A program made the position numbers and the translations under genes. A stretch of DNA of 32,000 nt from Nitrososphaera viennensis EN76 (lineage in GTDB: Archaea; Thermoproteota; Nitrososphaeria; Nitrososphaerales; Nitrososphaeraceae): contig NZ_CP007536.1 of assembly GCF_000698785.1 (NCBI RefSeq), forward strand, positions 1,500,001 through 1,532,000, written 5' to 3'. Shown here piece after piece: positions 17,932 through 30,515 of the stretch; position 1 is the first letter of the stretch, and each line of letters starts with the position of its first letter. The notes beneath the pieces were generated by a model. It saw only the letters and a program-made list of their open reading frames with translations. It had not been told where the DNA came from and did no database searches.

Positions 17932-17983
17932 CTCTGGGTTATAGCGGGGTACAATGGTATTTGAGCGTTTAAGCGTACGAGAG

Positions 17984-17994
17984 ATATTATAATA
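17984..17994 (+). promoter_or_regulatory. TATA-like box upstream of the hemerythrin-like gene
   Basis: ATATTATAATA about 30 nt upstream of ATG 18024, within the 92-nt divergent intergenic region. Confidence 0.35.
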
Positions 17995-18023
17995 GAGGCG
18001 CCTGCACACTTTTTCCCGCGGCG

Positions 18024-18587
18024 ATGAGCACCCGGGAGCTCGTGCAGGACCACGCCACTGTCAGGCGCATACGCGACATTGCGCAGAAATGCTCCGACAG
18101 GCTGTACGCCGGCGACGACATCCCGCTTGAGGAAATCGAGATAATCTCCGTCGTCATCGAAGAGTTTGTGGACGCGTTCCACCACGGCAAGGAGGAAAAG
18201 GCCTACTTTCCGGCAAACGAGCGCAAGAGTGGCGACTACGCGGAGGAGGTGCGCAAGTTCAAGATAGAGCACGAGTTCGGGCGCAGGGTCGCAGGGATGA
18301 TGCTCCGCAGCCTGAAAAAGTGGAAGAGCGGGGTTGTTGACGGCAGGGAGCCCGTCGCGCGGTTCTTAAAGACGTACGCGGCGTTTGTCACGGACCACAC
18401 CGGCAAGGAAGAGAAATTTTTTGAAATGGTCGAAGAAATGAGGAGCATATCAAGCGAGGAGGACAGGCAGATCCTGCGCCACTATGAGGCGTGCAGGATC
18501 GACGTGGGAGGGAGCGCAAGGGTGCAGGAGTTGTTGAGGCTGGTCGAGTACCTGGAAGAAAGGGAGTGGATGAAGAAGAAAAAATGA
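18024..18587 (+). CDS. hemerythrin-like (HHE cation-binding) domain protein
   Basis: Repeated His/Glu motifs spaced as in a four-helix-bundle di-iron protein: DAFHHGKEEKAYFP, KIEHEFGRR, VTDHTGKEEKFFE. Confidence 0.65.
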   Translation: MSTRELVQDHATVRRIRDIAQKCSDRLYAGDDIPLEEIEIISVVIEEFVDAFHHGKEEKAYFPANERKSGDYAEEVRKFKIEHEFGRRVAGMMLRSLKKWKSGVVDGREPVARFLKTYAAFVTDHTGKEEKFFEMVEEMRSISSEEDRQILRHYEACRIDVGGSARVQELLRLVEYLEEREWMKKKK

Positions 18588-18597
18588 TCCATCGCTG

Positions 18598-19974
18598 CTA
18601 CTCCACAGTCAGGCTTCCCTCCATCCACGGATGCAGCGCGCAGTAATAGTCGTGCCTGCCTGCGCTGTCGAATTTGTGCGTCCACGAGCCGCCTGCCCCT
18701 ATCAGCGACGAGTCAAAAGCCCCCTGCCTGTCGGTGACCGTGTGCACTATGGTGTCCTGGTTTACCCAGGTCACTTCCGATCCTGCATTGACAGAGATTT
18801 CGCGCGGGGCATAGTTCTCTTTTTGTTTGTTGTCCCACGAGCCTGCCACGATTGCCACCTGCGGGCCTGCGCCATGATGGGGGGAAGAGGAGGAGCTTGC
18901 CGGGGCGGTGGCGTTGTTTGCACCGCCGGTGTACTCTGTCACCTCCGGCTTTTGCAGCTTTTCAATCAGCTCGTGCTGCCAGCCTATCATCGACTCTGCC
19001 CGGTACGGCCCCTGCGACGGCTCGACCATTATCTCGCCCATGTTGCCCCGCTCTTCCTGCAGGCCGTGGCTGTGGAAGAGGTACGTCCCGGGCCACTTCC
19101 ACGTCGCCTCGACTATGGCGGCGTTTCCCGGCCCTATTTCGACCGTCTGGGCGTCTATCGGGTCGTTGGACCAGAGCCCCGACGGGTACGCCTTGAAGAT
19201 GGTGCTGTGAAGGTGGAACGAGTACGGGATGGTGGTGCCCATGTTGATGACGTACATCCTGATAAGCTCGCCCTGCCTGACGTGCAGCATGTTGTTGTCT
19301 TCGCCCATGTACTGGTCCGCGTAGCCGTTTACGAGATAGTACCTGGGCACAAAGCTCTCCTGGTCTTCCGGGTCAAACTCGCCCATCACTATCACAAACT
19401 CTCTTGCCGGCTCGGGCTTGCTGTTGCTGTCATCTTTGGGGTCTACTATCAGCGCGCCGTACATGCCCATCCTGATGTGGAGCGACGTCGGGTACGCGTG
19501 GCAGTGGTACATCAGCGCGCCGGCGGGGTCGGCCACGAAAGTGTAGTTGTAAGCCTCCCCGGGGAGCAACTGCGGGTGGACCCCGTCGCTTTCGTCGTCG
19601 TGGTTCCCGTGCAGGTGGAGCGTGTGCGCAAGGGGCGTCTTGTTTATGAAATGTATGGTGACGTTGTCGCCCTCGGTGAACCTGAGGGTCGGCCCGGGCA
19701 TCGTGCCGTTGAACGTCCACGCTTTAACGCGCTCGCCGGGCGCTATCTCGATCTCGGCTTCTTCGGCCACGAGCGTGACCTCTTTTTTAGCATTAGCATT
19801 ATTATTGTTGCTGTCTGCCGCCGCTGCCGCTGCTCCTCCTCCTGCCGCCCGGCCTTCAGGCGCAAGGAAGAAGAGCGAGCCGGCCACAACGCTTGAAGCA
19901 ACCGCGGCCACGACTGCAAGAGCAAGAAGCTTTTTCCCTCCCCTACCATCATTATTGTTGTTTTCACTTGGCAT
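18598..19974 (-). CDS. membrane-anchored/secreted two-domain multicopper oxidase fused to a C-terminal cupredoxin (amicyanin/plastocyanin-like) domain
   Basis: Four HxH-type motifs: HTLHLHG and YHCHAYPTSLHIRMGM (domain 1, type-1 Cu C-x7-H-x4-M), then FHLHS and LFHSHG (domain 2). The C-terminal domain has HTV ... YYCALHPWMEG (C-x2-H-x2-M). N-terminal hydrophobic anchor KKLLALAVVAAVASSVVAG. Start taken at ATG 19974. Confidence 0.85.
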   Translation of the reverse strand: MPSENNNNDGRGGKKLLALAVVAAVASSVVAGSLFFLAPEGRAAGGGAAAAAADSNNNNANAKKEVTLVAEEAEIEIAPGERVKAWTFNGTMPGPTLRFTEGDNVTIHFINKTPLAHTLHLHGNHDDESDGVHPQLLPGEAYNYTFVADPAGALMYHCHAYPTSLHIRMGMYGALIVDPKDDSNSKPEPAREFVIVMGEFDPEDQESFVPRYYLVNGYADQYMGEDNNMLHVRQGELIRMYVINMGTTIPYSFHLHSTIFKAYPSGLWSNDPIDAQTVEIGPGNAAIVEATWKWPGTYLFHSHGLQEERGNMGEIMVEPSQGPYRAESMIGWQHELIEKLQKPEVTEYTGGANNATAPASSSSSPHHGAGPQVAIVAGSWDNKQKENYAPREISVNAGSEVTWVNQDTIVHTVTDRQGAFDSSLIGAGGSWTHKFDSAGRHDYYCALHPWMEGSLTVE

Positions 19975-20072
19975 AGGAAAAATTTCTCTGGTTTTGCATA
20001 TAGGCAGGCCGTATACACAGCAAGCCCGCCTCCGTACTATAATCGCCTGCAACCTTTTGCAGCCGGCCGCAG

Positions 20073-20101
20073 GCGCGCCTGCTTGCCGGCGCTTGCAATG
20101 C
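20073..20101 (+). promoter_or_regulatory. operator-like element S1 (GCGCGCCTGCTTGC-CGGCGCTTGC-AATGC)
   Basis: The 21-mer 20081-20101 is 20/21 identical to 21070-21090. GCTTGC is repeated with 10-bp phasing. The element lies ~10 nt upstream of the TATA-like TTTTAATA (20111-20118) of the ABM gene. Confidence 0.5.
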
Positions 20102-20132
20102 AGACTCTTGTTTTAATAGGGGCGGAAAAGAT

Positions 20133-20471
20133 GTGATGGCGTTGGCGGACCAGCTGGTGGAAAAGCGCGCCCTCCTGGAGGGCATGGTATTCGTGGCAAT
20201 AGCGGACATTGAGCTGAAAAAAGGAAAGGAGGAGGAGTTCAAGAAGTGGTTTTTGCAGTCAAACCGCGTCCTTGCAAGGCAGGACGGCTTTATAGCAAGA
20301 AAGCTGCTAAAGTCGCCCAATGGGAGCCAGCACCGGATAATGGTCATCATGGAAAGCAAGGAGGCGTTTGCCAAGATGCACACGACATCCGAGCACGCCA
20401 AGCTCCACACGGAGGCGCTTGCGTTCATGGCAAGGCCGCCAAAAATATCCGCCTATGATTCCGTGTCCTGA
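20133..20471 (+). CDS. antibiotic-biosynthesis-monooxygenase (ABM, ferredoxin-like dimeric alpha+beta barrel) domain protein
   Basis: MVFVAIADIELKKGKEEEFKKWF...GFIARKLLKS...RIMVIMESKEAFAKMHTTSEH is the typical ABM pattern. Start is uncertain (GTG 20133, ATG 20136 or ATG 20184). Confidence 0.65.
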   Translation: MMALADQLVEKRALLEGMVFVAIADIELKKGKEEEFKKWFLQSNRVLARQDGFIARKLLKSPNGSQHRIMVIMESKEAFAKMHTTSEHAKLHTEALAFMARPPKISAYDSVS

Positions 20472-20485
20472 CTTGCTTGCTTTCG

Positions 20486-21016
20486 CTATTCGTCGACTGT
20501 GAGCGTGAGCATGGTGTTTGACACCATGATGTCTACGCGCCTGTTCAGGATCTCGTTGAATATCTGCTCCAGGAGCGTCTTGTGGTAGAGCGACCAGTTG
20601 TATCCGAGGTCGTGCTTCATCACAAAGACGTGCCGGCCCTCGTTTTCGCTGTGGGAAAACTCGATTGACGAGCTCTTCATCCGGGTCTCAAGCCACGACA
20701 GGAACGACGAGAGGTCCATCCTAGTCTTCATGAAAAGCGCGATGTCGTGAACCACGCCCTTGCCAATCTTTTGCGCCATCTCCAGTATTTCCTCCCTGTC
20801 CATGCTTTCAAAGAGCGTGTGCACCAGGGGCCTTGCGATCGGTATCATGCCGACCTTTGGCTCGTACACGTCCCACTCGACAAAGCGCTTAAGTATCTGG
20901 TTGACAAGCGTGTTGAGGCTGACTTCCCTCTTGTCAGACTCGGACCGGAGCTTGCCCATGACGCCTTCTTCGATGCGGAACGTCATAGTGACTGTTTTTT
21001 TGGAATCATCTGTCAT
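20486..21016 (-). CDS. ribbon-helix-helix (CopG/Arc-like) DNA-binding protein with a ~130 aa C-terminal domain of unknown function
   Basis: N-terminal TVTMTFRIEEGVMGKLRSESDKREVSLNTLVNQILKRFVEW fits a beta-strand/helix/helix RHH pattern. Start taken at ATG 21016 (MTDDSKK). Confidence 0.55.
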   Translation of the reverse strand: MTDDSKKTVTMTFRIEEGVMGKLRSESDKREVSLNTLVNQILKRFVEWDVYEPKVGMIPIARPLVHTLFESMDREEILEMAQKIGKGVVHDIALFMKTRMDLSSFLSWLETRMKSSSIEFSHSENEGRHVFVMKHDLGYNWSLYHKTLLEQIFNEILNRRVDIMVSNTMLTLTVDE

Positions 21017-21069
21017 GGGGACTATTACAGAGTTTTTCCGCGTTTGAACTATAATAACGATGCTGAAAC

Positions 21070-21090
21070 GCTTGCAGGCGCTTGCAATGC
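21070..21090 (+). promoter_or_regulatory. operator-like element S2 (GCTTGCAGGCGCTTGCAATGC)
   Basis: 20/21 identical to 20081-20101. It sits in the divergent region between the RHH gene (start 21016) and the zinc-ribbon gene (start 21123), ~10 nt upstream of the A/T-rich CATAAGTAT. Confidence 0.5.
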
Positions 21091-21122
21091 GTACCTGATG
21101 CATAAGTATCATTCTGGCCTAG

Positions 21123-21338
21123 ATGCAGCAGTTGGTCCTTGGCTGCAGGGGGCTTTGCGCCCGGCTGGAGACGATTGGCGGAGGCAAGAACTCGGTGTAC
21201 AGCCTCGGCTACAAGCGGTGCTCGTCCTGCGACATTTACATAAAGTGGGACGACGGGTGCCGGTGCCCGTGCTGCAAGCTGCCGTTGCGCGTGAAAAAGA
21301 GAACAAAGCAGAATATCGTCTCCTCCCGCGCGTACTGA
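21123..21338 (+). CDS. small zinc-ribbon protein (Cys-rich, basic C-terminus)
   Basis: 71 aa with GCRGLCARL ... KRCSSCDIYIKWDDGCRCPCCKLPLRVKKR. The CxxC and CPCC pairs form a zinc-ribbon-like pattern. Confidence 0.5.
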   Translation: MQQLVLGCRGLCARLETIGGGKNSVYSLGYKRCSSCDIYIKWDDGCRCPCCKLPLRVKKRTKQNIVSSRAY

Positions 21339-21404
21339 TTCTTATTATTATCTGCAGTACAGTTTCACGGTTATGCCGTCAGGGTCGCGCACAGTGGCAG
21401 AATC

Positions 21405-21421
21405 GCGCGCCTGCTTGCAAT
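21405..21421 (+). promoter_or_regulatory. operator-like element S3 (single-unit version: GCGCGCCTGCTTGCAAT)
   Basis: The 14-mer GCGCGCCTGCTTGC is identical to 20073-20086. S3 equals S1 minus one 10-nt unit. It lies ~6 nt upstream of the A/T-rich ATAATTAATATTTATT preceding the 21471 gene. Confidence 0.4.
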
Positions 21422-21470
21422 CTCGATGATAATTAATATTTATTCGGGTTCCAATGACGAACCGTAAGAA

Positions 21471-21746
21471 ATGCCAAAAGAGCTTTCAGAAGCGCAAGCG
21501 TGGGAGATAGTCAAGCCGGTCTGCAGGGAGCTGGTCGAGCTCGTCAATGAAAAGATGGTCAGGTTCGTCTCTGCCACGGAAAGCGACAGCGGGACGTACG
21601 CGATTAACTTGAAATCAAGCCGGATTCATCTTGCCTCCCGCGGGTTCAAGGACAGCATCGGCGACATAGAGTACGGCGATGGAAAGCTGAGGATCGGGCT
21701 GCGGGCAAACGGCAGGCCGGGAAACATTTTCATCGACCTGGAATGA
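21471..21746 (+). CDS. hypothetical small protein
   Basis: 91-aa ORF with an ATG start and a TATA-like box 30-40 nt upstream. No family recognised. Confidence 0.45.
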   Translation: MPKELSEAQAWEIVKPVCRELVELVNEKMVRFVSATESDSGTYAINLKSSRIHLASRGFKDSIGDIEYGDGKLRIGLRANGRPGNIFIDLE

Positions 21747-21838
21747 ACAACATGCATAGTTCCATTTTTCAAGCGTGCATAATTGCATAATTTGAGCACG
21801 GCCGTGCATAATTGGGAAAAAACGACTGTGCTTGGGTG

Positions 21839-21867
21839 ATGCGTGTGTGTGCGCGCGCGTGTGTGCG
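21839..21867. repeat. RY-1: 29-nt perfect alternating purine-pyrimidine tract
   Basis: ATGCGTGTGTGTGCGCGCGCGTGTGTGCG. Contains the core CGTGTGTGTGCGCGCG at 21842-21857. Lies in the intergenic region between convergent genes. Confidence 0.95.
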
Positions 21868-21960
21868 GCGGGACATGCAAGATAGGTGGTATCCATGTCG
21901 TACATAGATAAAAGAACTACTATATTCTGCAAAAGATATGTGTGCTGGCGCATTTTTTTC

Positions 21961-22377
21961 TTATTCTGAAGAAGAGATGAGCCTGTGCTTTTTCAACAAG
22001 GGCAGCACCTTGCCCAGTATTATTTCTTCGTGGCGGGCATAGTTATCAAAGGACATGAGCAGGAGGGCATAATCACCGTGCATCAACGGGATTGAAGCCC
22101 TTTTCACTTTCTCGTACAGGGTGAACGTGTATACGGCCCTGCCAAGTCTTGATTCATAATCTTCACGGGTCTTCATGCGAAGGACAGACTTGACTGCAGA
22201 GCCTTCCACCTCCTCGTCGGTCAAGAGAGGTTTCACCCCTTCTCGAAACTCGGAGGCAACCATTTTGCCCATCTTGTTTGCAATTCCCGCAAACCGGATA
22301 GAACTGTCAGCCAAGAGTATCTGCCTGCAGATATTTTTTAGATGAAGAGCGGCATCATTATCATCAGCAACTACCAT
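21961..22377 (-). CDS. hypothetical protein, possibly Roadblock/LC7 (MglB-fold)-like
   Basis: ORF 21961..22440 trimmed to ATG 22377 (MVVADDNDAALHLKNICRQILL), with TATA-like TTTAGATAATTATT about 25-40 nt upstream. The pattern IRFAGIANKMGKMVASEF ... ALLLMSFD resembles Roadblock-type proteins; this is a weak call. Confidence 0.4.
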   Translation of the reverse strand: MVVADDNDAALHLKNICRQILLADSSIRFAGIANKMGKMVASEFREGVKPLLTDEEVEGSAVKSVLRMKTREDYESRLGRAVYTFTLYEKVKRASIPLMHGDYALLLMSFDNYARHEEIILGKVLPLLKKHRLISSSE

Positions 22378-22521
22378 TTTTCCCTCGCAACCACCTTGGG
22401 TACGGCAATAATTATCTAAAACAGTTGCCGGACAGGACACAGATGATGATCTCTATTATTCGTACCTGTTTAATATCATGACGTCCAAGATCCACGGCTG
22501 GCGCCGATATATGCACGATTG

Positions 22522-22536
22522 GTATGCGTGTGCACA
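22522..22536. repeat. RY-2: 15-nt alternating purine-pyrimidine tract (plus an 11-nt tract at 22507-22517)
   Basis: GTATGCGTGTGCACA, upstream of the 21961-22377 gene. Confidence 0.7.
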
Positions 22537-22687
22537 AGGGATCCTGACGGTCAATCACGGTATTAGCAGTAGTTGCAGCAGAGCCTCCCAATCCGGGTCA
22601 GAATCAGCGAAAGACATTCTCATACCCTCCAATATAGTATAGATATAGCGGGAATTTGCACTTTAATTAAATAGTAAAATCAGATAT

Positions 22688-23116
22688 TTGACGAATGTGA
22701 GGAACGACACTTCGTCAAGGCTGGCTGCTGTCGCATTAATATCTGCGATATTGCTCGGAGCGACGGCAGCAGTTGGGTACATGTTGAACATTCAGACAGC
22801 ACGTGCAGTAGAGGTTGGCAACACGCAAGTACAGATACAGGTACAGGGCTCGGGAAGCGATGGCGGTGGGGGTAGCGGCAATAGTGGCAGCGGCAGCGAG
22901 GGAGGAGGACAGGGCTCGGGAAGCGATGGTGAGAGAGATGGGCAAGATAGCAATGGTGGCGATAATGGACAAGGTCGATATTGCTACAGCGCCGCCGTCA
23001 CTAACCCATTCACCGGCAAGACACGCACCGTCGATGTGTGCTTTGACAGCCAATCTGACTGCGAACAGGCCCAGCAGCATGACCCAGATTCGGCATCCGG
23101 CTGCGAAACGCAGTAG
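22688..23116 (+). CDS. small secreted/anchored protein: signal anchor, Gly/Ser-rich acidic linker, C-terminal 4-Cys domain
   Basis: TTG start. Hydrophobic LAAVALISAILLGATAAVGY, then QGSGSDGGGGSGNSGSGSEGGGQGSGSDGE (encoded with a 20-nt internal DNA repeat), then RYCYSAAV...VDVCFDSQSDCEQ...SGCE. Confidence 0.5.
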   Translation: MTNVRNDTSSRLAAVALISAILLGATAAVGYMLNIQTARAVEVGNTQVQIQVQGSGSDGGGGSGNSGSGSEGGGQGSGSDGERDGQDSNGGDNGQGRYCYSAAVTNPFTGKTRTVDVCFDSQSDCEQAQQHDPDSASGCETQ

Positions 23117-23201
23117 CAAAAGCCACCAAAGCGCGCCGGCCAGGGCATTTGCCGAAAAACGAAAGAGCAAGATGCACGTGTGTACAAGATACTGAGCAGG
23201 C

Positions 23202-23543
23202 GTGGTGGCTTTTTCTTCTGCTGCTGCCGACAACCAGCCACAATTCCTGTACCTGGACACCAGGGGGTGGAAGACTGGCAAAAAGCACCAGATAGAAATC
23301 TGGTTTGTCGAGCATGAAGGCAAATATTACATAATGTCAGAGCGCAGGGAACGCTCCCACTGGGTCCAGAACATCATGCACGACCCCGGCGTTTTCTTCA
23401 GCGTCAACGACAAGAAATTCGAGGGGACTGCAAGGACCGTCAGGCAGGAAGATGAGCCCGGGCTGGCGGTGGAAGTCGCAAAATTGATGAATGCCAAATA
23501 CCGGTGGGACGACGGCTTGATTGTAGAGCTCAAGCCGGCGTAG
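23202..23543 (+). CDS. split-barrel flavin/deazaflavin-binding protein, DUF385 / PNPOx-like
   Basis: YLDTRGWKTGKKHQIEIWFVEHEGKYYIMSE...SHWVQNIMHDPGVFFSVNDKKFEGTARTV matches the pattern of F420H2-dependent reductase-like DUF385 proteins. GTG start is uncertain. Confidence 0.5.
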   Translation: MVAFSSAAADNQPQFLYLDTRGWKTGKKHQIEIWFVEHEGKYYIMSERRERSHWVQNIMHDPGVFFSVNDKKFEGTARTVRQEDEPGLAVEVAKLMNAKYRWDDGLIVELKPA

Positions 23544-23563
23544 CAGCAACAGCAGCCCATATA

Positions 23564-23588
23564 GCGCGTATGCGTGTATGCATGCGCA
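23564..23588. repeat. RY-3: 25-nt perfect alternating purine-pyrimidine tract
   Basis: GCGCGTATGCGTGTATGCATGCGCA, preceded by CATATA (23558-23563) with one phase slip. Lies between two convergent 3' ends. Confidence 0.9.
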
Positions 23589-23624
23589 GGTCCATAACTT
23601 GCAGGCTCGCCACGGCCGCGGCAG

Positions 23625-24650
23625 TCACGGAAGGGGAGTGATCTCTCTTATGCTAAAGTCAGAGTACGCCATCGTTCCGTATTCGTGCCTTACATAGACT
23701 GTAAGCATGGGTTTTCCTGTCTCGCTGCTATCATCTATGAACGAGTGTATTAGCGGCAGCGCCGGGTCCACGCCAGGCCTGCATGCGCCCCGGTCAACGC
23801 CGAAATTGTTGCCGTTGTCAATGAATTCCGTTATTTTCTGCCATGAGCCGCCATTCAAGCCGCCAGTCATGTCCCGGTACAGCTCCAGCTTTACCTTGGT
23901 GTTGTCGTCCATGTTGCGCAGCACGTACTTGAAGCCCACCCACGTGTTCAGCGGTAGCTCGCCTGACGGCCTTTGCCCTGCCGCGCGGGTGTAGCCGTCG
24001 TCTAGGTGGTGCGCAGTCTCTTTTTCAAAGGCCCATCCGCCGTTGATGTTCACCAGGCCGCCGTAGCCGCGGTCGTCGCAGTAATTGACATTCTCCCTGC
24101 CCTCTGTCCCGTGGTTTGTGCGCGCAAACACCTGCATGCCTGAATAGTCGACGATCTCTGTTTCGTCGATCCTCTTGACGTACAGCGTTATCTCCAGGTT
24201 CTCCGACCATTCGCGCTCGTTGGCAGGGTCGTGGACGTACATCCTGACATAGTCGCCGGATGCTGTCAGCGTGCCTGCGCCGTCTATCGTGTACGTCCCG
24301 TCGCCGTGCTTTGTTTCAAACCAGTCATCCTCAGGATCAACGTCATTGACTATTGTCCGCGCCGCCCCGTTGTCCCATTTTGACGACCATTCAATGCCCC
24401 CGGGAGAAGTGGGGTACAGCCGTGTGATTCCAAACCTGTCCTTTGGCGACAAGAGATCAGTTGCCGTTGGCGGCACAGCCTGAAGCAAAATTACCAGTAC
24501 CAGAGCCAGTGCCAGCAGCGCCGCAGCAATAATGATGATGATGACAAAGACGAGCCGCTTGCGAGTGTTCGGCGACTGCAGCAGTGACAATAAGGATCGC
24601 TTTATGCGATCGCCCATGCTGTTACTTGCATCGGCATCTCCTACAGTCAA
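23625..24650 (-). CDS. membrane-anchored extracellular beta-sandwich protein (ConA-like lectin/glucanase or polysaccharide-lyase-like fold), paralog A
   Basis: Short cytoplasmic N-terminus, a TM helix (LVFVIIIIIAAALLALALVLVILL), then a ~270 aa domain (DRFGITRLYPTS..EWSSKWDNG...GDYVRMYVHD...WVGFKYVLRN...VKLELYRD...VYVRHEYGTMAYSDFSIREI). TTG start at 24650 is preceded by the SD-like AAGGAG. Fold assignment is tentative. Confidence 0.7.
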   Translation of the reverse strand: MTVGDADASNSMGDRIKRSLLSLLQSPNTRKRLVFVIIIIIAAALLALALVLVILLQAVPPTATDLLSPKDRFGITRLYPTSPGGIEWSSKWDNGAARTIVNDVDPEDDWFETKHGDGTYTIDGAGTLTASGDYVRMYVHDPANEREWSENLEITLYVKRIDETEIVDYSGMQVFARTNHGTEGRENVNYCDDRGYGGLVNINGGWAFEKETAHHLDDGYTRAAGQRPSGELPLNTWVGFKYVLRNMDDNTKVKLELYRDMTGGLNGGSWQKITEFIDNGNNFGVDRGACRPGVDPALPLIHSFIDDSSETGKPMLTVYVRHEYGTMAYSDFSIREITPLP

Positions 24651-24687
24651 CTTTTTTCTCCTTGAATTTGCTGTTCATGTGTGCTCT

Positions 24688-24735
24688 TACGCGCACACGT
24701 ACACGCACGTGTGTGTGCGCGCGTACGCACATACA
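24688..24735. repeat. RY-4: 48-nt perfect alternating pyrimidine-purine tract, quasi-palindromic
   Basis: TACGCGCACACGTACACGCACGTGTGTGTGCGCGCGTACGCACATACA. Core at 24708-24723. CGCGCACAC (24690-24698) is complementary to GTGTGCGCG (24713-24721). Lies in the presumed 5' leader of paralog A. Confidence 0.95.
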
Positions 24736-24916
24736 AGGCAGCCGGTTATCAGGTACAGGCAAGGTATATCTACAAACGTGTCATTATTGAAGATAATACT
24801 GGAACCTTTTACCATACTCTTCTTCGACAATAGGTCAGACGCTCACTCATTGCAGTCTGCTGCTGGAGTAAGAAAAACTAGAAAGAGAAGGCGAGAGAGA
24901 GGGGGCGAGAGAAAAG

Positions 24917-25270
24917 CTACGGATTTGCCTTGGCCTTCTCGACTTCTATGGTGCATTTGGTCACTATTCCTGCTATTACGCCCAGCGCGGCCAGCCATGG
25001 CGCCAGCGCGAGCACCGCAACCGCCCCGGCCGCTCCCCATGTGACAGGGATGGACAAGAGCAGCTTGCCTTTCTCATCTTTTATGTTGATTCTCTTGACC
25101 TGGGCATCGTTGATTATTTCCTTGACTTTGCCGACCAAGCCTTCGCCAGAGACGTTGTAGACGTCCTTTTCAATCCCTACCTGGGCCCCGCAATTGGGGC
25201 AGAATCTAGCATTAGACGGGAGTTCAGCATGGCATTCCTTGCATTTTCCGGGAGTGGCTTCTTCGACCAT
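24917..25270 (-). CDS. zinc-ribbon + DUF4342 domain protein
   Basis: CKECHAELPSNARFCPNCG zinc ribbon. VSGEGLVGKVKEIINDAQVKRINIKDEKGKLLLSIPVTWGAAGAVAVLALAPWLAALGVIAGIVTKCTIEVEK matches the DUF4342 pattern as I recall it. ATG 25270 preferred over TTG 25303. Confidence 0.65.
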   Translation of the reverse strand: MVEEATPGKCKECHAELPSNARFCPNCGAQVGIEKDVYNVSGEGLVGKVKEIINDAQVKRINIKDEKGKLLLSIPVTWGAAGAVAVLALAPWLAALGVIAGIVTKCTIEVEKAKANP

Positions 25271-25360
25271 ATCGAACTTGCGTGTACCTCTTTTCTCCAG
25301 CAATCAATCAACAGTACAATATTCAAGGTTTTTCCTGCGGCTACCAACAGCCAGGTTGTC

Positions 25361-25388
25361 CATGCGCGCACGTGTGTGTGCGCGCGCA
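25361..25388. repeat. RY-5: 28-nt perfect alternating pyrimidine-purine tract
   Basis: CATGCGCGCACGTGTGTGTGCGCGCGCA. Shares the 20-mer CGCACGTGTGTGTGCGCGCG with RY-4 in the same orientation. Lies in a divergent promoter region. Confidence 0.95.
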
Positions 25389-25456
25389 ACCGCCTTGATC
25401 CTGCCATTACTTATTATTGCCCGCTGACATCATGAACAGGGGACCCGTTCACCACC

Positions 25457-26383
25457 ATGCTGCAGCCCCGGATTGTAACCTCTGTTGCGCCGTACGTGAC
25501 TGTCGCCGGCGCCCTGCAGGCTACCCAGCTTGCGCACGAGGACGGATTTTCAGGGGTGGAGCACAGCGAAGACCACCTTCACTGCTCTGTTGCGGCAAAG
25601 CCAAACTGCCTTGCCATGCTGAGGGAATTCAGCGCGGACAAGCACATGCACAACTCCCTCCACAAGACCTTGCACAGGCCCAGCATCGACTCGCCGGACA
25701 GGGCCGAGAGGAAGAAGGCAGTAGAATACACGCTAAAGACGCTCGATTACATGGAGGCTGCCGGCATCCCGAGGATGGTCCTGCACAGCTTTAGCGACCT
25801 GCCTGCCTTCTTTTCCCTAAAGGCCGAGCGCGCCAACAGGGCAGGATACCTGGTAGGCTCCAACGTTGTCAAGGTGTACGGCGTCCTTGCTCCCGCGCTA
25901 AGGGCGTACCGCCGGTGGAAAAAAGAAGAGGTCCAGGCGAACTTTATGCGCTCGCTGGAAGAGATAGCGAAGTACGCGGCCGACAAGAAAGTAGACGGCG
26001 GCAGGCCCATCGAGATCGTGTTTGAGGAGCATTACTCGGATGCCATTGACTATGACCTCGTCCCGTACGGGAGGGGGAATTTCGTCAACGTCATCCGCGG
26101 CATAGACACGGCGCACCACCTGATCAGGACAGGAAAAGACCTGGACCTTGAAGGGGTGTCGGAGCCTATCCACTTTCACGCAGTCGACACGAACGGCAGG
26201 ATAGACGACCACAGGACGATAGGCACGGGCAGGGTGCATTTCGAGAACAGCCTGTCGGCCGCCATTGGAAGGAACCTGGCAAGCGCCATCGTGATAGAAG
26301 ACGGCACGAGAAAGAGCGCGCTAAGGTCCAAGGAAGTGCTGGCGGCCATGATAAAGCGCATTGGCACGGCTAGTCGAAATTGA
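25457..26383 (+). CDS. xylose-isomerase-like TIM-barrel protein (sugar phosphate isomerase/epimerase family)
   Basis: Alternating beta/alpha pattern with conserved His/Glu/Asp positions (GVEHSEDH, MVLHSF, IVFEEHY, IDTAHH, IHFHAVD) typical of the AP-endonuclease-2/xylose-isomerase-like fold. Call by eye. Confidence 0.55.
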   Translation: MLQPRIVTSVAPYVTVAGALQATQLAHEDGFSGVEHSEDHLHCSVAAKPNCLAMLREFSADKHMHNSLHKTLHRPSIDSPDRAERKKAVEYTLKTLDYMEAAGIPRMVLHSFSDLPAFFSLKAERANRAGYLVGSNVVKVYGVLAPALRAYRRWKKEEVQANFMRSLEEIAKYAADKKVDGGRPIEIVFEEHYSDAIDYDLVPYGRGNFVNVIRGIDTAHHLIRTGKDLDLEGVSEPIHFHAVDTNGRIDDHRTIGTGRVHFENSLSAAIGRNLASAIVIEDGTRKSALRSKEVLAAMIKRIGTASRN

Positions 26384-26421
26384 TATCACATCATCAACAA
26401 CAACGCGTGGGTAAAAACGTC

Positions 26422-27372
26422 CTAGTCAGAAGAAGAAATGCCTGCGACTTCAGAATAGGTCTTTATCGTGTATCCCTTGGCGCGAATGTCGTCGATGAGC
26501 GCATCCAGGTCGGCCAGTTCGCTGCTTGAAACCTGGTTTGTCGGGTTCTGGTTTGAGTCCTTGATTGCAAAGTCTTCAGGGTGCAATGTCACCACTGCAT
26601 ACCCGTAGGATGATATTGCCTCGTCGATGCTGCTTGTCATAGTATTCATCGATGTCTTTGTCGGCGGTTCGGAATCGTAGGTGTAAAAGCCCACCACCTG
26701 CGGGAGGTGGTAGACGCCATGCGAGTCTGAAATGTCAGAGCCAGGCATTGCCTTGTAGACCTTGTTGTTTGGGCTGTCAGGGTCGTCAGGGTCGTAGACG
26801 CTCAAAAGCTCTTCGTCGAATTCCGCGCTTATGATCTTCATGTCGAGCGCTTCCAGTGCGGCAAGAGTGTCTTCGTTATAGGAGTTGTACGGCGGGATAA
26901 AGACTACTGCGCTTGTCCCCCAGAGCGCGACCATCTTTTGGTTGGCCCGCTGCAGCGTGGCGCGCTGCTCCTGAAGAGTCAGGGTCTTGTAGTCGACGTG
27001 GTCCCACGCGTGGCTTGCAAGCTCGAACGTGCCAGACGAGAGGCCTGCCCTTACTTTGTCAACCACGGATGAATCGTTTCCCACAATGTTCATTATCGCC
27101 CCGACGTTGAGTTTTTCATTCTTTTCAATGAAATAATCCATGAGTGCAACCTGGACCGAGTTCATCCACTCATCCTGAATGTCATCAAGCCTAAAGATGA
27201 CGCAATTGCAGGCTTGTTCCTCCTGTGCAGGCGCTGCGGCAATGGAAGCATTGGCAGAAGAGATTGGAACAGAGACCATGCCAGAGACGAGCAGCAGGGC
27301 TGCAACAGCCGCTGCTACTGCTGCCGAGCTATTCCTGGCTGACAACATCCGGCTTTTTTTGCCACATTTCAT
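26422..27372 (-). CDS. secreted polysaccharide deacetylase (NodB homology / CE4-like)
   Basis: Signal anchor AAVAAAVAALLLVSGMV. Motifs FRLDDIQD, SHAWDH and FIPPYNSY correspond to CE4 motifs 1-3. Start taken at ATG 27372; the alternative is 27348. Confidence 0.7.
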   Translation of the reverse strand: MKCGKKSRMLSARNSSAAVAAAVAALLLVSGMVSVPISSANASIAAAPAQEEQACNCVIFRLDDIQDEWMNSVQVALMDYFIEKNEKLNVGAIMNIVGNDSSVVDKVRAGLSSGTFELASHAWDHVDYKTLTLQEQRATLQRANQKMVALWGTSAVVFIPPYNSYNEDTLAALEALDMKIISAEFDEELLSVYDPDDPDSPNNKVYKAMPGSDISDSHGVYHLPQVVGFYTYDSEPPTKTSMNTMTSSIDEAISSYGYAVVTLHPEDFAIKDSNQNPTNQVSSSELADLDALIDDIRAKGYTIKTYSEVAGISSSD

Positions 27373-27557
27373 TTGTACAGGCGCGTCTTGCGTTTCCTTT
27401 CTTGGACTAAAAGCGTGGTGCAGACCTACTCTATAGAATCCAAGCATTGAATTTTACGCTAAAGGTGCCATCACCTCTGATTGCAGAACAATAATACACC
27501 GCGAAAACAGGTTTTTCATGCAACAAAGCTACTACTTTATTCCGGCCTTTTGCTGTC

Positions 27558-28484
27558 TCACATGCTTTGACGCGCGTAAGGACCCTTTGCACCCAGGCAC
27601 GCCGACCACGATGGCGCCGCATTACCGGGCGTCCTCTCCCAGGGGTTCACGCACTTGTTTTTCGCTATCTCTGCCTTATGCTGGAGATACGCTTCTTCGA
27701 ACCATGATTGCATGCGGCTCTTTGATGGCACAATGTTGTTGTGGTGCTCCTTGTCAGCACCAGCGGCTTTATCCCAGAGTATCTCGCGTCCATACTGCTC
27801 TGAAAACCACATCTTGTGCGTCCTGTCAGCTCCTCCTCTGTCCCACCACTTTTGAAATGCCTTGAAGTTTTGCTTTTCCGTCTTGGCATAGTCGTAATGC
27901 CAGGCTTGCTTTTCCAGCGACAGATAGTGGCGCCAGGTCTTGTCGTCGGCCTCTGCATGCCGGGTCATGTTATCTCTCATCTCTGCTCGTTTTTGCAGAT
28001 ATTTCATCTGTTCATCTGTCTTCTTTATCTCGTGATGTGGCTGGTGGTTGGCCTTGTTCCAGAGTATCTCGTCCCTGAGATGCTCGTGCTGCCACATTTC
28101 GCCCTTGGGATAAGATGACGGGTCGCAAGCGTGAGTGAAATCCTTGTAGCCGTGCAGGCGCAAGTCTGCGCAGTACCACTTTTGGTATGCCTTGACATTG
28201 TGCTTTTCCATTTTGCCGTAGTTGTAATGCCAGGATTCTTTTTCCAGTTTCAAAAAATCCTGCCAGTACTGCTGTCGCAGCTTGGCAGTAGCGGTAGCGA
28301 TGTTATTGTTACTGCTACTGCTACTTTTGTCGGCGTTGTTGTTATTATTATTGTTGCCAGTTATCTTGGTCGCCTGCTCTGCGGCAGATGCCCTGTACGG
28401 CGATGATTGAATGGCCGCGAAAATCAAGAGGGCCGTCAGTGATAGCACGGCCGCAGACATCATCCCTACTCGTCTTTTGTCCAT
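27558..28484 (-). CDS. secreted Trp-rich protein with two internal ~60-70 aa repeats, unknown family
   Basis: Signal anchor MMSAAVLSLTALLIFAAI, an Asn/Ser homopolymer linker, then the repeats YWQDFLKLEKESWHYNYGKMEKHNVKAYQKWY...EILWNKA and TWRHYLSLEKQAWHYDYAKTEKQNFKAFQKWW...EILWDKA. Start taken at ATG 28484. Confidence 0.6.
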   Translation of the reverse strand: MDKRRVGMMSAAVLSLTALLIFAAIQSSPYRASAAEQATKITGNNNNNNNADKSSSSSNNNIATATAKLRQQYWQDFLKLEKESWHYNYGKMEKHNVKAYQKWYCADLRLHGYKDFTHACDPSSYPKGEMWQHEHLRDEILWNKANHQPHHEIKKTDEQMKYLQKRAEMRDNMTRHAEADDKTWRHYLSLEKQAWHYDYAKTEKQNFKAFQKWWDRGGADRTHKMWFSEQYGREILWDKAAGADKEHHNNIVPSKSRMQSWFEEAYLQHKAEIAKNKCVNPWERTPGNAAPSWSACLGAKGPYARQSM

Positions 28485-28661
28485 GGCAGCGCTATTTTTT
28501 TCGCTCTCGCCTTCAATCATGCTATTTCGTCGTTTACAATGATCCACAAACGAGTAATAAAGAGCCATGATTTCAGTCTCCTGAGGGAGAGTGCAGAAAG
28601 AAATTCGCGTATTTCTCTCGCGCCTGCTCCTATTTTTTGCTCCCGTAGATCAGAGGAGACT

Positions 28662-29870
28662 GCTGCAGTCATCATGAAAGCGGGTCGATCTCTCTTATGT
28701 CAAAGCCCGAGTACGCCATCGTTCCGTATTCGTGCCTCACATAGACAGAGAGCATTGGCTTTTTTGATTCGCTGCTATCGTCTATGAACGAGTGTATTAG
28801 CGGCAGCGCCGGGTCCACGCCGGGCCTGCATGCGCCGTAGCCGGCACCGAAATTGTTGCCGTTGTCAATGAATTCCGTTATTTTCTGCCATGAGCCGCCA
28901 TTCAAGCCGCCAGTCATGTCCCGGTACAGCTCCAGCTTTACCTTGGTGTTGTCGTCCATGTTGCGCAGCACGTACTTGAAGCCCACCCACGTGTTCAGCG
29001 GTAGCTCGCCTGACGGCCTCTGGCTTGCCACGTCGACATAGCCATTGTCCAGGTGGTGCGCCGTCTCTTTCTCAAACGACCACTGGCCGTTGATGTTCAC
29101 CAGGCCGCCGTAGCCGCGGTCGTCGCAGAGGTTCACCTCTTCGTTGCCGTTCGTGCCGTGGTTTGTGCGCGCAAACACCTGCATGCCTGAATAGTCGACG
29201 ATTTGCGTTTCGCTTATTCTCTTGACGTACAGCGTTATCTCCAGGTTCTCCGACCATTCGCGCTCGTTGGCAGGGTCGTGGACGTACATCCTGACATAGT
29301 CGCCGGATGCTGTCAGCGTGCCTGCGCCGTCTATCGTGTACGTCCCGTCGCCGTGCTTTGTTTCAAACCAGTCATCCTCAGGATCAACGTCATTGACTAT
29401 TGTCCGCGCCGCCCCGTTGTCCCATTTTGACGACCACTCCATTCCACTGGCAGAAGTAGGATACAGCTCGGTGATTCCAAACCTGTCTTTTGACGGGGAA
29501 GAGTTTCTAGTAGTCGTTGTTGTTGTCGTCGTAGTTGTTGTTGGCACAGCCGGACCTGGCTTTTGGGAGATTCCCACCACCAGTATTACAGGAATCGATG
29601 CCACCAGCGTCGCTGCAACAAGTACAAAGATAAGCCGGTTGCGAATTTTTGCCGGCTGGGGCGATGATGATGACGACGACGATAATAGCCGCTTTATCCG
29701 ATTACCGATATTGTTTGTCCCAGCGTCATCATCTCTTACAACCACGGTTTGTTCTCCTCTCGGTTTTTTTGCGGTTTATTTGCACTCTGCGGCCCTGACT
29801 GTCAGATTCAGACAGAGAATATATCACCAAACATGTCAGTATTGAAGATAATTCTGGAACTTTTTACCAT
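28662..29870 (-). repeat. duplicated gene+promoter unit, copy B
   Basis: Collinear with 23615-24815. Perfect-identity runs at 28848-29019 and 29219-29436. Confidence 0.9.
28672..29745 (-). CDS. membrane-anchored extracellular beta-sandwich protein, paralog B (poly-Ser and poly-Thr linkers)
   Basis: Same architecture as 23625-24650. GTG start at 29745 is preceded by the SD-like GAGGAG. Linker TTTTTTTTTTT follows the TM helix. Confidence 0.7.
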   Translation of the reverse strand: MVVRDDDAGTNNIGNRIKRLLSSSSSSSPQPAKIRNRLIFVLVAATLVASIPVILVVGISQKPGPAVPTTTTTTTTTTTRNSSPSKDRFGITELYPTSASGMEWSSKWDNGAARTIVNDVDPEDDWFETKHGDGTYTIDGAGTLTASGDYVRMYVHDPANEREWSENLEITLYVKRISETQIVDYSGMQVFARTNHGTNGNEEVNLCDDRGYGGLVNINGQWSFEKETAHHLDNGYVDVASQRPSGELPLNTWVGFKYVLRNMDDNTKVKLELYRDMTGGLNGGSWQKITEFIDNGNNFGAGYGACRPGVDPALPLIHSFIDDSSESKKPMLSVYVRHEYGTMAYSGFDIREIDPLS

Positions 29871-30093
29871 GCCGGAAATCACGGGTGAGGACTGATCCCA
29901 TTATCATCTTGTTTTAAACATAGTCCAGGTCCCATGGCCCGCCACCGAATAGTCCGGGATATATGTCCTCCAAATGGTTCATCTGGCTCCAACAATGCCA
30001 GGGCAGTTTCTTCCAGAGTTTGCGCCCGAAATAACGCGACATTACAACCATGACGATAACTCGTAAATATTTTTTCTGCCGTACCAAGAGGCT

Positions 30094-30432
30094 ATGAGCC
30101 TTCATGAGCTAAAATGCGAGGCGTGCAGAGGAGATGTGCCCGTGCTTCAAGAAAGGGAGATTGCGGAGCTCCGGCCCGGCGTGCCCGACTGGGAATTAGC
30201 CCTCGTGGACGGGATAAAAGTCCTCAGGCGGGTCTACAAGTTCAAGAATTTTGCAGAAGCGCTTTCATTTACAAACAAGGTAGGGGCACTGGCAGAAGAG
30301 CAAGGGCACCATCCTGCGCTGCTGACAGAATGGGGCAAGGTAACCGTCACGTGGTGGACCCACGCGATAGGCGGCCTGCACAAGAACGACTTTATCATGG
30401 CCGCCAAGACCGACAAGCTGCTGGAAAGTTGA
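30094..30432 (+). CDS. pterin-4-alpha-carbinolamine dehydratase (PCD/DCoH family)
   Basis: [45 protein letters not shown] matches the PCD signature. TATA-like GTAAATATTTTTT lies ~25 nt upstream. Confidence 0.8.
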
Positions 30433-30515
30433 GCAGGTAATTATTTCCGGTAACTGCTCACTGCTTACTTTCAGATAACTGCCGCTCTTCTGTATTTTAA
30501 TAACCCTCATAATGT

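Follow-up and report, generated by a model that had tools for sequence, protein, structure and literature searches.

Long, perfectly alternating purine–pyrimidine tracts in gene spacers of Nitrososphaera viennensis

Introduction

An archaeal precedent for alternating purine–pyrimidine (RY) sequence is the RY box of the Halobacterium bop promoter, which Yang, Kim, Molinari and DasSarma are said to have described in 1996. It reportedly spans about 11 bp of non-coding DNA at a fixed place in one promoter of a gyrase-containing haloarchaeon, and is said to have been proposed to adopt a non-B structure. The tracts of Nitrososphaera viennensis are likewise alternating RY sequence in archaeal non-coding DNA, but they are 2–4 times longer, lie in terminator, leader and promoter spacers, and belong to a host without gyrase. 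Bacterial REP/BIME elements and the Nitrososphaera tracts are both short, GC-rich, extragenic, often palindromic, frequently near gene 3′ ends and present in many copies per genome. The tracts, however, have no conserved consensus or termini, we saw no RAYT gene in the sampled DNA, and the property that they have in common is RY alternation, not palindromy. Microsatellites and cryptically simple sequence, such as eukaryote-style (TG)n and (GA)n, and the simple sequence repeats (SSRs) of bacterial contingency loci resemble the tracts in their non-coding confinement, in 2-nt length steps between related species and in the enrichment of homopurine runs alongside. The tracts differ in their mixed units, in the lack of a tandem repeat call by TRF (T3–T5 below) and of strain-level length polymorphism, and, unlike contingency-locus SSRs, they are not placed in genes or promoters so as to give phase variation.

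Huang & Mrazek (2014; PMC4060949) made a prokaryotic survey of potential Z-DNA-forming sequences, namely (CG)n, (TG)n and mixed RY tracts, which the Nitrososphaera tracts resemble as uninterrupted, CG/TG-rich RY alternations in non-coding DNA. At 25–48 nt, they are well over the RY12–RY24 motif definitions of that survey, and their host has no gyrase. Whereas RY patterns are generally suppressed in the surveyed prokaryotes (PMC4060949), they are about 25-fold enriched in Nitrososphaera spacers.

Results

Five uninterrupted RY alternations had been listed in a sequence-only reading of a 32-kb stretch of N. viennensis DNA (the window), and all five were found exactly where they had been placed, between genes according to the gene calls of two NCBI assemblies. 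T1 (21839–21867), a perfect tract of 29 nt with units TG ×8 and CG ×6, lies in the convergent spacer between the genes at 21471–21746(+) and 21961–22377(−). T2 (22522–22536), a run of 15 nt, is in the divergent spacer between 21961–22377(−) and 22688–23116(+). The 25-nt T3 (23564–23588), which reaches 31 nt from 23558 if one phase break is allowed, occupies the 81-nt convergent spacer between 23202–23543(+) and 23625–24617(−), and has GTATGCGTGT in common with T2. T4 (24688–24735), at 48 nt, sits between a conserved promoter-like block and the start of the 330-aa gene 23625–24617(−), and is probably within the 5′ leader of that gene. T5 (25361–25388), of 28 nt, is in the divergent spacer between a DUF4342 gene (24917–25270, −) and an AP_endonuc_2/TIM-barrel gene (25457–26383, +), and a TATA-like CTTATTATTG follows about 20 nt after its end. 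An RY-run scan of the window added T2b (23172–23186), which the earlier list lacked: a 15-nt run located 16 nt upstream of an F420H2-quinone-reductase-like gene (23202–23543). T2b falls inside an annotated CDS (22815–23195), but this was called in the wrong frame; the gene that is conserved lies at 22688–23116. The palindrome CACGTG is present in T4, T5 and T2b.

We modelled chance with 300 dinucleotide-preserving shuffles of the window, in which the longest RY run averaged 15.5 nt and reached 23 nt at most, and runs of at least 12 nt averaged 9 per 32 kb. The tracts of 25, 28, 29 and 48 nt far exceed what chance gives, as the earlier reading had argued; T2 and T2b, at 15 nt, are background judged by length alone. 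The first 20 kb of the window contain nothing comparable (longest run, 12 nt), as had been pointed out. Two GCGCGCGT blocks at 31161–31186, upstream of a protein kinase gene, had been mentioned as weaker (31160–31184); each has only 9–10 nt of alternation, a background level without significance.

The 16-mer CGTGTGTGTGCGCGCG that had been described as a core of three tracts is indeed found on the + strand at 21842–21857 (T1), 24708–24723 (T4) and 25371–25386 (T5). Under a unit-level Markov null, the exact 20-mer CGCACGTGTGTGTGCGCGCG common to T4 (24704–24723) and T5 has P < 0.001 for independent tracts, and the 16–17-mers that these two have in common with T1 have P of about 0.01; the sharing among the three is beyond chance. 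A 14-mer recurs at a distant N. viennensis locus and in 0 of about 58 loci of relatives, and the 16-mer is sporadic in more than 120 unrelated genomes, as low-complexity sequence would give. No flanking motif common to the tracts was found across spacer types. TRF detected an internal 14-nt duplication in T1 and called no tandem repeat in T3, T4 or T5; pure unit runs in the tracts comprise at most 4 copies. No explanation for the tracts came from Rfam families, viral matches or published motifs; Rfam hits below threshold, to miRNAs derived from (TG/CA) repeats, stem from the same composition.

For enrichment, three loci were compared, namely L001, another N. viennensis locus some 640 kb distant (L185) and a locus of N. 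evergladensis (L187); the analysis sampled about 58 kb of the 2.5-Mb genome. RY runs of at least 13 nt have intergenic densities of 2.0, 1.7 and 1.2 per kb, respectively, against 0.06 per kb in coding DNA; the 7, 7 and 4 runs observed compare with means of about 0.7–1.0 in dinucleotide shuffles of the same spacers. Intergenic enrichment, which the sequence-only reading had raised, is thus borne out at the sampled loci, whereas an enrichment peculiar to the accessory region is not, as the second N. viennensis locus and N. evergladensis are enriched in the same way. Homopurine/homopyrimidine runs are enriched equally in these spacers (7 versus 0.23 at ≥15 nt); M/K and S/W patterns show weak enrichment or none, and none is significant at ≥15 nt. 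Because homopurine/homopyrimidine runs are just as enriched, the signal is a general landscape of purine/pyrimidine-patterned simple sequence, not of Z-DNA motifs specifically. Convergent, divergent and tandem spacers all contain tracts. Of the 21 tracts, 9 lie at most 36 nt from a stop codon and others a short way upstream of TATA-like boxes, and we found no rule for their position relative to genes. Such positions and sequences are too heterogeneous for the operator of one protein, nor do they form a CRISPR array; on both points we concur with the earlier reading.

By comparison with relatives, the long tracts are young, labile indels. The promoter-like block of the 330-aa gene (24738–24827, −), which contains TTGACACGTTTGTAGATATA and abuts T4, is kept in a paralog, copy B (29820–29870, 88%), in the relative L127 and in N. 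evergladensis; its promoter role is putative. The copy B gene (28672–29745, −) is about 90% identical to copy A over the shared 3′ portion, and its leader (29746–29819), an internal control for T4, has no RY tract, so that T4 appears as a 48-column gap in the alignment. At the T4 site, L127 has 37 nt of non-RY sequence instead, and the N. evergladensis sequence is limited to TACACACACAT, an 11-nt (CA)n seed. Against N. evergladensis, T3 stands out as a clean insertion of 24 nt, flanked by conserved ATATAG and ATAACTTGC. T5 is missing from the closest relative, and a (TGY)n run takes its place in the 87%-identical relative; by our own reading of both spacer sequences, homology with L127 restarts right after T5, at about 25390, although the BLAST HSP beyond T5 begins only at 25461. 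The segment 21748–22581, containing T1, has no homolog in N. evergladensis. The boundaries of indels and rearrangements fall at the tracts, in keeping with the recombinogenic character that had been proposed.

RY alternation is nevertheless kept by N. evergladensis at 2 of 3 testable sites; the spacer orthologous to that of T2b has a 27-nt RY tract there, with ATGCACGTGTG in common. Upstream of AP_endonuc orthologs an RY segment recurs in distant clades, and among relatives with near-identical flanks it shifts in 2-nt steps, for example TGTGTATATGT versus TGTGTGTATATATGT. The lineage has a ts:tv of only about 1.7. Two further sequences, CP103305.1 and CP104300.1, match the window at 100% identity over 15457–32000, a span that includes all tracts, and the independent metagenome assemblies L004 and L005, covering 24263–29019 only, are 100% identical across T4 and T5. 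Tracts are also identical between two N. evergladensis strains (98.96% identity). Length polymorphism was not seen among the four independent N. viennensis assemblies or the two N. evergladensis strains.

T3, T4 and T5 are imperfect palindromes, T5 having the form GCGCGCAC-GTGTGT-GTGCGCGC. Only the T5 hairpin is better than shuffles (z = −3.65); the T4 fold is no better than shuffles, and T1 has no palindromy (z = +0.28 versus its own shuffles), so cruciform potential is not the shared property that it had been taken for. Their richness in CG and TG makes the tracts the region's most flexible and most Z-prone DNA. Among topoisomerases, N. viennensis possesses Topo III, Topo IB and Topo VI and lacks gyrase (PMC8185306, Table 1). 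By a rough estimate, the B–Z flip requires a sigma of about −0.035 to −0.05. Given this threshold and the absence of gyrase, steady-state Z-DNA at the tracts is doubtful, and the Z-DNA and supercoiling analogy with the bop RY box, which the earlier reading had drawn, transfers poorly.

Discussion

In our best reading, the tracts of the window belong to a genome-wide spacer population of strictly purine/pyrimidine-patterned simple sequence in Nitrososphaera, as young insertions or expansions specific to their lineage. We see about an even chance that they are self-propagating simple sequence, which templated copying together with even-length slippage would produce and which only spacers would tolerate. 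A tract would start from a seed, a short RY stretch present by chance in a spacer (CATATA or TACACACACAT, for instance). When DNA is replicated or breaks are repaired, this seed may mispair with itself or with a different RY tract. Slippage by even lengths, along with template switching guided by microhomology, would then copy RY sequence in register, and the tract would grow or be imported, its alternation staying perfect; the expected outcome is cores such as CACG(TG)4(CG)3 common to different tracts. Selection would purge such sequence from coding DNA, leaving it to build up only in spacers, of all types. A dedicated protein would not be required, and effects on nearby promoters, leaders and terminators would be a by-product, not the reason for the tracts' existence.

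Several observations count against self-propagation. As pure unit runs have at most 4 copies and T3–T5 give no TRF call, ordinary slippage is expected to be slow, and the identity among strains and assemblies means that the tracts are not hypermutable. Perfect 48-nt alternation with mixed units cannot be reconciled with neutral decay of a pure repeat. RY kept at two N. evergladensis sites and at AP_endonuc orthologs could be due to selection. Finally, RY patterns are generally suppressed in prokaryotes (PMC4060949), and their abundance in Nitrososphaera therefore needs a cause.

The main rival supposes that the RY tracts, perhaps together with the homopurine runs, are structural elements at gene boundaries, whether non-B or flexible DNA, topological or chromatin, in which alternation, rather than a precise sequence, is selected. 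They could take up negative supercoils generated by transcription, as transient Z-DNA sinks, or serve as favoured sites of Topo VI or Topo IB action or as archaeal histone-array boundaries. We consider this possible but less likely. It is consistent with the roughly 25-fold enrichment over shuffles, restricted to spacers, with the placement near stop codons and TATA-like boxes, with the stability between strains, and with an alternation that is perfect although units are mixed and ts:tv is low. RY-ness also persists, with sequence and length differing, ahead of the F420H2 reductase gene in both N. viennensis and N. evergladensis and ahead of AP_endonuc in several clades. Precedents are the gyrase-binding BIME/REP elements of bacteria and the preference of eukaryotic topoisomerase II for alternating RY repeats. 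However, the longest tracts are dispensable, since they are missing from the closest relative, the paralog and N. evergladensis; they follow no positional rule, and the core of the window (1–20 kb) has none. Moreover, convergent spacers (T1, T3) gather positive, not negative, supercoils, and, as gyrase is lacking, the estimated B–Z threshold would be attained only briefly, in the wake of RNA polymerase. The tracts look like sequence spreading by copying rather than a regulatory switch, though they may have a structural role.

Could the tracts instead be REP-like miniature GC-rich extragenic palindromes, copied by a dedicated (RAYT/IS200-like) or borrowed enzyme? Palindromy in T3–T5 and the strong T5 fold, the clean insertions of T3 and T4 relative to homologous sequences, the core common to T1, T4, T5 and a distant locus, and the extragenic placement, often near 3′ ends, agree with this idea. 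Still, we regard it as unlikely: the ends are not conserved, no target-site duplication is seen, lengths range from 13 to 48 nt, T1 is non-palindromic, T4 does not fold beyond chance, and most other tracts have no consensus except alternation. Neither the window nor L001 yielded a transposase, and a DDE transposase fragment at the edge of L185 is unassociated with any tract. Short RY seeds are already present at the insertion sites, which fits the expansion of simple sequence better than transposition.

A sequence-specific regulator that binds the core (e.g. GCACGTGTGT or CGTGTGTGTGCGCGCG) and co-regulates neighbouring genes is very unlikely. It would explain why the core is exact in three same-strand tracts, why T5 and T2 are in divergent promoter regions and why CACGTG recurs, but not why T1 and T3 are between convergent 3′ ends or why tract length and sequence vary so widely; relatives' orthologous promoters are without the core, the 16-mer turns up sporadically in unrelated genomes, and the tracts bear no relation to the copper-responsive motifs published for N. 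viennensis (PMC7785015). An assembly or sequencing artefact in low-complexity sequence, with collapse of the tracts on resequencing, has a negligible probability and is ruled out by the 100% identity of two complete genomes and two independent metagenome assemblies across the tracts; a k127 metagenome contig (L003) is chimeric in the region, which is explained by 100%-identical paralog stretches, not by the tracts.

Perfect purine–pyrimidine tracts in the window

A direct scan of the window recovered all five of the uninterrupted purine–pyrimidine alternations (RY tracts) that had been picked out in a sequence-only reading: T1 (21839–21867, 29 nt), T2 (22522–22536, 15 nt), T3 (23564–23588, 25 nt), T4 (24688–24735, 48 nt), and T5 (25361–25388, 28 nt). 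It also found one that had gone unlisted, T2b (23172–23186, 15 nt). Shuffling the window 300 times with its dinucleotide composition preserved gave a chance baseline for tract length, in which the longest RY run averaged 15.5 nt and was 23 nt or less in every shuffle. T1, T3, T4, and T5 are therefore far beyond chance, whereas the 15-nt runs do not stand out from background in length; the original claim that the tracts are not a chance product holds for the four long ones but, on length alone, not for the short ones.

The 16-mer core common to T1, T4, and T5 lies on the same strand at 21842–21857, 24708–24723, and 25371–25386, as first read. T4 and T5 also have an exact 20-mer in common, CGCACGTGTGTGTGCGCGCG, for which a scan of viral contigs gave no match. 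Over all eight tracts, the dinucleotide units number 30 CG, 27 TG, 24 CA, and 13 TA, and the longest pure unit runs are (TG)4 and (CG)4. Two complete genomes (CP103305.1 and CP104300.1) are 100% identical to the window over 15457–32000, every tract included, and two independent metagenome assemblies, which span T4 and T5 only, are likewise 100% identical there. The tracts thus persist in independent assemblies, which rules out an assembly artefact or a lab-stock polymorphism.

According to the NCBI gene calls, the tracts lie outside genes, in agreement with the claim that all are intergenic. The one overlap is that of T2b with the annotated CDS 22815–23195 (126 aa), a call whose frame appears, from sequence comparison, to be wrong: ORF 22688–23116 (142 aa), which overlaps it, matches its N. 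evergladensis ortholog with E = 9e-43, as against E = 4.2 for the annotated frame. The product of this ORF has a signal or TM segment, a linker rich in Gly/Ser, and a C-terminus containing Cys. T1 and T3 are located between convergent 3′ ends of genes and T2 and T5 in divergent spacers, while 16 nt separate T2b from the F420H2-quinone-reductase-like gene downstream of it. T4 has a conserved promoter-like block on one side and, on the other, the start of a gene for a 330-aa protein, and is probably in the 5′ leader of that gene. For nine of 21 tracts, the distance to a stop codon is 36 nt or less. The tracts occur in all spacer types, and no flanking motif is common to them; TATA-like sequences occur near T5 and T2b only.

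Other repeats were seen beside the tracts. A 19-nt inverted repeat (23110–23128 and 23203–23221, 89% complementary) flanks the T2b spacer on both sides, and the orthologous spacer in the syntenic N. evergladensis region (L187, 11464–11483) carries a perfect palindrome, ACACCGCGTCGACGCGGTGT, after the stop of the upstream gene, which is possibly a terminator hairpin. The direct repeats GTGCATAATTG / TGCATAAT (21776–21815, TRF period 8) precede T1 by ~25–60 nt and belong to the spacer that follows a 91-aa gene.

Enrichment in intergenic DNA

The sample comprised ~58 kb of DNA from N. viennensis and ~42 kb from N. evergladensis, and run densities were calculated from the called genes. RY runs of at least 13 nt occur at 2.0 per kb in intergenic and 0.06 per kb in coding DNA at L001, the N. 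viennensis locus covering the window region; at 1.7 and 0.06 per kb at L185, a second N. viennensis locus ~640 kb from the window; and at 1.2 and 0.06 per kb at L187. Eight such runs were found in the intergenic DNA of L185, among them the 24-nt ATATGTGTGTGTGCGCGCATATGT. The runs of this length observed in spacers numbered 7, 7, and 4 at L001, L185, and L187, respectively, compared with a mean of ~0.7–1.0 in dinucleotide-shuffled spacers. The excess over coding DNA and over shuffles is present at all three loci, and the tracts are no peculiarity of one accessory stretch, since L185 and N. evergladensis show the same enrichment.

RY tracts are ~25-fold enriched in spacers. Homopurine/homopyrimidine runs of at least 15 nt (7 vs 0.23) are as enriched as alternating runs (13 vs 0.51), and amino/keto and strong/weak patterns showed weak or no enrichment, none of it significant at ≥15 nt. 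Given the equal enrichment of homopurine/homopyrimidine runs, the signal is that of a simple-sequence landscape with purine/pyrimidine patterning and is not specific to Z-DNA motifs. Huang & Mrazek (PMC4060949) report a general suppression of RY patterns among prokaryotes, and we found no literature linking Nitrososphaera with Z-DNA; hence, the spacer RY enrichment in Nitrososphaera appears to be undescribed so far. Perfect tracts of 25–48 nt, enriched to this degree in the spacers of a cultivated model ammonia oxidiser, are an exception to the reported suppression.

Homopurine and homopyrimidine runs are enriched in the spacers of N. viennensis and N. evergladensis generally. One polypurine tract of ~35 nt (24880–24913, (AGAGAAGGCGAG)-like, TRF period 12 × 2.5), directly downstream of a DUF4342 gene, is possibly a terminator, because it is polypyrimidine on the sense strand.

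A contig scan for the 16-mer core found one occurrence each in at least 120 unrelated, GC-rich genomes, as is expected for low-complexity sequence. A few of these loci are microsatellite-rich, which makes them a poor baseline for RY runs. Those with 100–500-nt TG/CA microsatellites (L024, L031, L035, L041, L042, L077, L078, and L109) are probably eukaryotic host contamination; several belong to a MAG that carries the label Metamycoplasmataceae. The 16-mer matches listed include disproportionately many Solirubrobacterales MAGs (L017, L071, L091, L123, L124, and others). In several Solirubrobacterales loci, two to four RY runs of at least 16 nt lie within 8 kb, and the order may have a comparable RY-tract habit.

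Turnover of the tracts between species

The window contains two paralogs of the 330-aa gene, copy A (23625–24617), which adjoins T4, and copy B (28672–29745). They are ~90% identical over their shared 3′ portion, with some stretches at 100%, and both keep the promoter block (24765–24815 vs 29820–29870, 88% identity); T4 corresponds to a 48-column gap in copy B. The T4 site in N. evergladensis reads TACACACACAT only. L127, the 87%-identical locus of the closest relative, is homologous to the window over 24279–24668 and 24738–24827, and 37 nt of non-RY sequence fill the T4 position. In place of T5, L127 has a (TGY)n run, and homology restarts directly after the tract, at ~25390 when the spacer sequences are read (the BLAST HSP starts at 25461). 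T3 is a clean 24-nt insertion relative to N. evergladensis, flanked by conserved ATATAG and ATAACTTGC, and T2b has an orthologous tract of 27 nt there, with ATGCACGTGTG in common. To judge from the T3 and T4 comparisons, the tracts were inserted after the N. evergladensis split or after the paralog duplication.

The segments 21748–22581 (T1/T2) and 24834–27533 (T5) have no counterpart in the syntenic N. evergladensis region. The former carries a DUF6659 gene and the latter DUF4342/zinc-ribbon, AP_endonuc_2 TIM-barrel, and polysaccharide deacetylase genes; in L127 the TIM-barrel and deacetylase genes are present and the DUF4342 gene is absent.

Upstream of AP_endonuc orthologs in ~15 relatives (~40% GC) we found a (TG)n(TA)nTGT segment of 9–26 nt, whose length varies in 2-nt steps among the relatives while the flanks are otherwise conserved. 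Length polymorphism was thus seen between species at these orthologs. Two N. evergladensis strains (98.96% identity) have identical tracts, and no length polymorphism was found between them or among four N. viennensis assemblies. As far as these sequences tell, the tracts turn over between species yet are not hypermutable.

AP_endonuc orthologs at L132–L175 have a conserved block, CTTTTTATAGATTCATTTATGAATACCTTTATTCGG, ~100 nt upstream, which includes the palindrome ATTCAT-TT-ATGAAT and is a candidate regulator site in the ~40% GC Nitrososphaera relatives; this block is absent from N. viennensis.

Copying between tracts as a possible origin

T1, T4, and T5 share more sequence than their unit composition predicts. 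Under a unit-level Markov null, the 20-mer shared by T4 and T5 has P < 0.001 and the shared 16–17-mers have P ~0.01. A 14-mer recurs at a distant N. viennensis locus and occurs in 0 of ~58 relatives' loci. A (TG)4(CG)3 core is common to 4 of ~17 N. viennensis tracts, the others differing. T1 holds an internal 14-nt duplication (TRF: 14-nt unit × 1.9), and short RY seeds are present at the insertion sites of T3 and T4. The shared k-mers, the 14-mer recurrence, the seeds, and the T1 duplication point to copying between tracts. On this ground we favour even-length slippage combined with microhomology-guided template switching between RY tracts, an origin to which we would give an even chance. Such a process would keep the RY phase automatically and could copy tracts without a dedicated enzyme, and selection would filter the products out of coding DNA.

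Z-DNA potential and a possible selected role

T1, T3, T4, and T5 (25–48 nt) fit the sequence definition of potential Z-DNA-forming sequence (RY alternation of at least ~12 bp, dominated by CG and TG/CA), and by sequence the tracts are a new instance of this known kind of feature. A rough estimate from textbook energies, reportedly those of Ho et al. (1986) and of Peck & Wang (1983), puts their B–Z flip threshold at sigma −0.035 to −0.05. For N. viennensis, Table 1 of PMC8185306 lists Topo III, Topo IB, and Topo VI but neither gyrase nor any other type IIA enzyme. Sustained negative supercoiling is therefore unlikely, and the tracts could flip only by transcription-driven transients; the convergent spacers (T1 and T3) would be under positive stress. 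The Z-DNA proposal of the sequence-only reading thus agrees with the sequence definition, but the lack of gyrase makes sustained Z-DNA doubtful, and the equal enrichment of homopurine/homopyrimidine runs shows that the signal is not confined to Z-DNA motifs.

Cruciform potential, which had been taken as a common property, is not shared, because only T5 folds better than its own shuffles (hairpin z = −3.65, vs −1.09 for T3, −0.08 for T4, and +0.28 for T1).

The RY box of the haloarchaeal bop gene is said to be fixed in the core promoter, beside the TATA box and the transcription start, and reportedly stimulates transcription in a supercoiling-dependent manner. By contrast, our tracts occur in spacers of every type (convergent, divergent, and tandem), at distances of 3–278 nt from the ends of genes. 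The suggested analogy thus fails on position, and the bop box is a weak analogue also because sustained negative supercoiling is unlikely in a host without gyrase.

A selected structural role would agree with the spacer enrichment of the tracts, their perfect alternation, their stability between strains, and the RY character kept at two of three orthologous sites; we consider it somewhat unlikely. Broader still, and improbable in our view, is the idea that RY and homopurine spacer tracts form a genome-wide topological/chromatin punctuation in Nitrososphaera, which has histones, a eukaryote-type Topo IB, and no gyrase. RY tracts at gene boundaries might then be places where Topo VI or Topo IB preferentially acts, or transient sinks in the form of Z-DNA, and would be an archaeal counterpart of bacterial BIME–gyrase sites, in which selection keeps the alternation while the sequences turn over.

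If slippage and template switching have made the tracts a self-propagating simple sequence, they would imply that replication or repair works in an unusual way in Nitrososphaera and would mark indel/rearrangement hotspots in variable regions. If they are under selection, they would provide a tractable case for studying what non-B-DNA or topoisomerase sites do in an archaeon whose chromatin and topoisomerases resemble those of eukaryotes. Under either reading, RY tracts are a property of intergenic DNA across the genus, not a locus-specific device.

Rejected origins and known sequence classes

Neutral decay of pure (CG)n by transitions cannot give 48 nt of perfect mixed-unit alternation at the lineage ts:tv ratio of ~1.7, at which nineteen transitions without any transversion have a calculated P of ~1e-4. 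The youth of the tracts, evident from the T3 and T4 insertions, also excludes decay, and they must therefore have been born as mixed RY sequence. A target-site duplication through insertion of the DUF4342 gene, with the 20-mers in T4 and T5 as direct repeats, was rejected because the native promoter block (24738–24827) lies between them.

A classical microsatellite (SSR) was rejected on unit structure, the units being mixed; TRF at a minimum score of 30 reported no period-2 tandem array in the tracts and called T1 alone. A REP/BIME-like family failed on consensus, no tract having conserved termini, and the genes called at L001 and L185 include no RAYT (IS200/IS605-like) transposase. The tracts do not form a CRISPR array, as had been recognized from the sequence: there are no regularly spaced identical repeats, and the spacings are 683, 650, 392, 1124, and 673 nt with genes between. 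A known RNA family was rejected, as no Rfam covariance model reaches its gathering score; the best match, mir-466 (34.5 bits vs gathering 85), and the other sub-threshold matches to repeat-derived miRNAs are compositional only. The copper-limitation (copper-responsive) motifs of N. viennensis (PMC7785015) are unrelated to the tracts.

Other observations in the region

Copies A and B and a third N. viennensis paralog (L185, 10001–11692) belong to one protein family, which has no Pfam match and whose members are secreted or anchored in the membrane; the third carries discoidin (F5/8 type C) and Big_7 domains as a fusion. Members of the family are common across Nitrososphaera (181 matches at E ≤ 1e-10). 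The 100%-identical nucleotide stretches between copies A and B suggest gene conversion. In a mock-community metagenome contig (L003, ERZ922837 k127_605), window 27441–29492 is joined straight to ~24446–27306. This is most likely an assembler mis-join via the identical paralog stretches; a real circular or tandem-duplication junction is possible.

A gene for a 336-aa hypothetical protein (27558–28568) contains a 92-nt direct repeat (27845–27936 and 28175–28266, 76% identity, 330 nt apart), which would indicate a repeated protein domain. The multicopper oxidase gene at 18598–19974, which adjoins hemerythrin and ABM-domain genes, probably belongs to the MCO4 genes, for which strong induction has been reported in copper-limited N. 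viennensis (PMC7785015).
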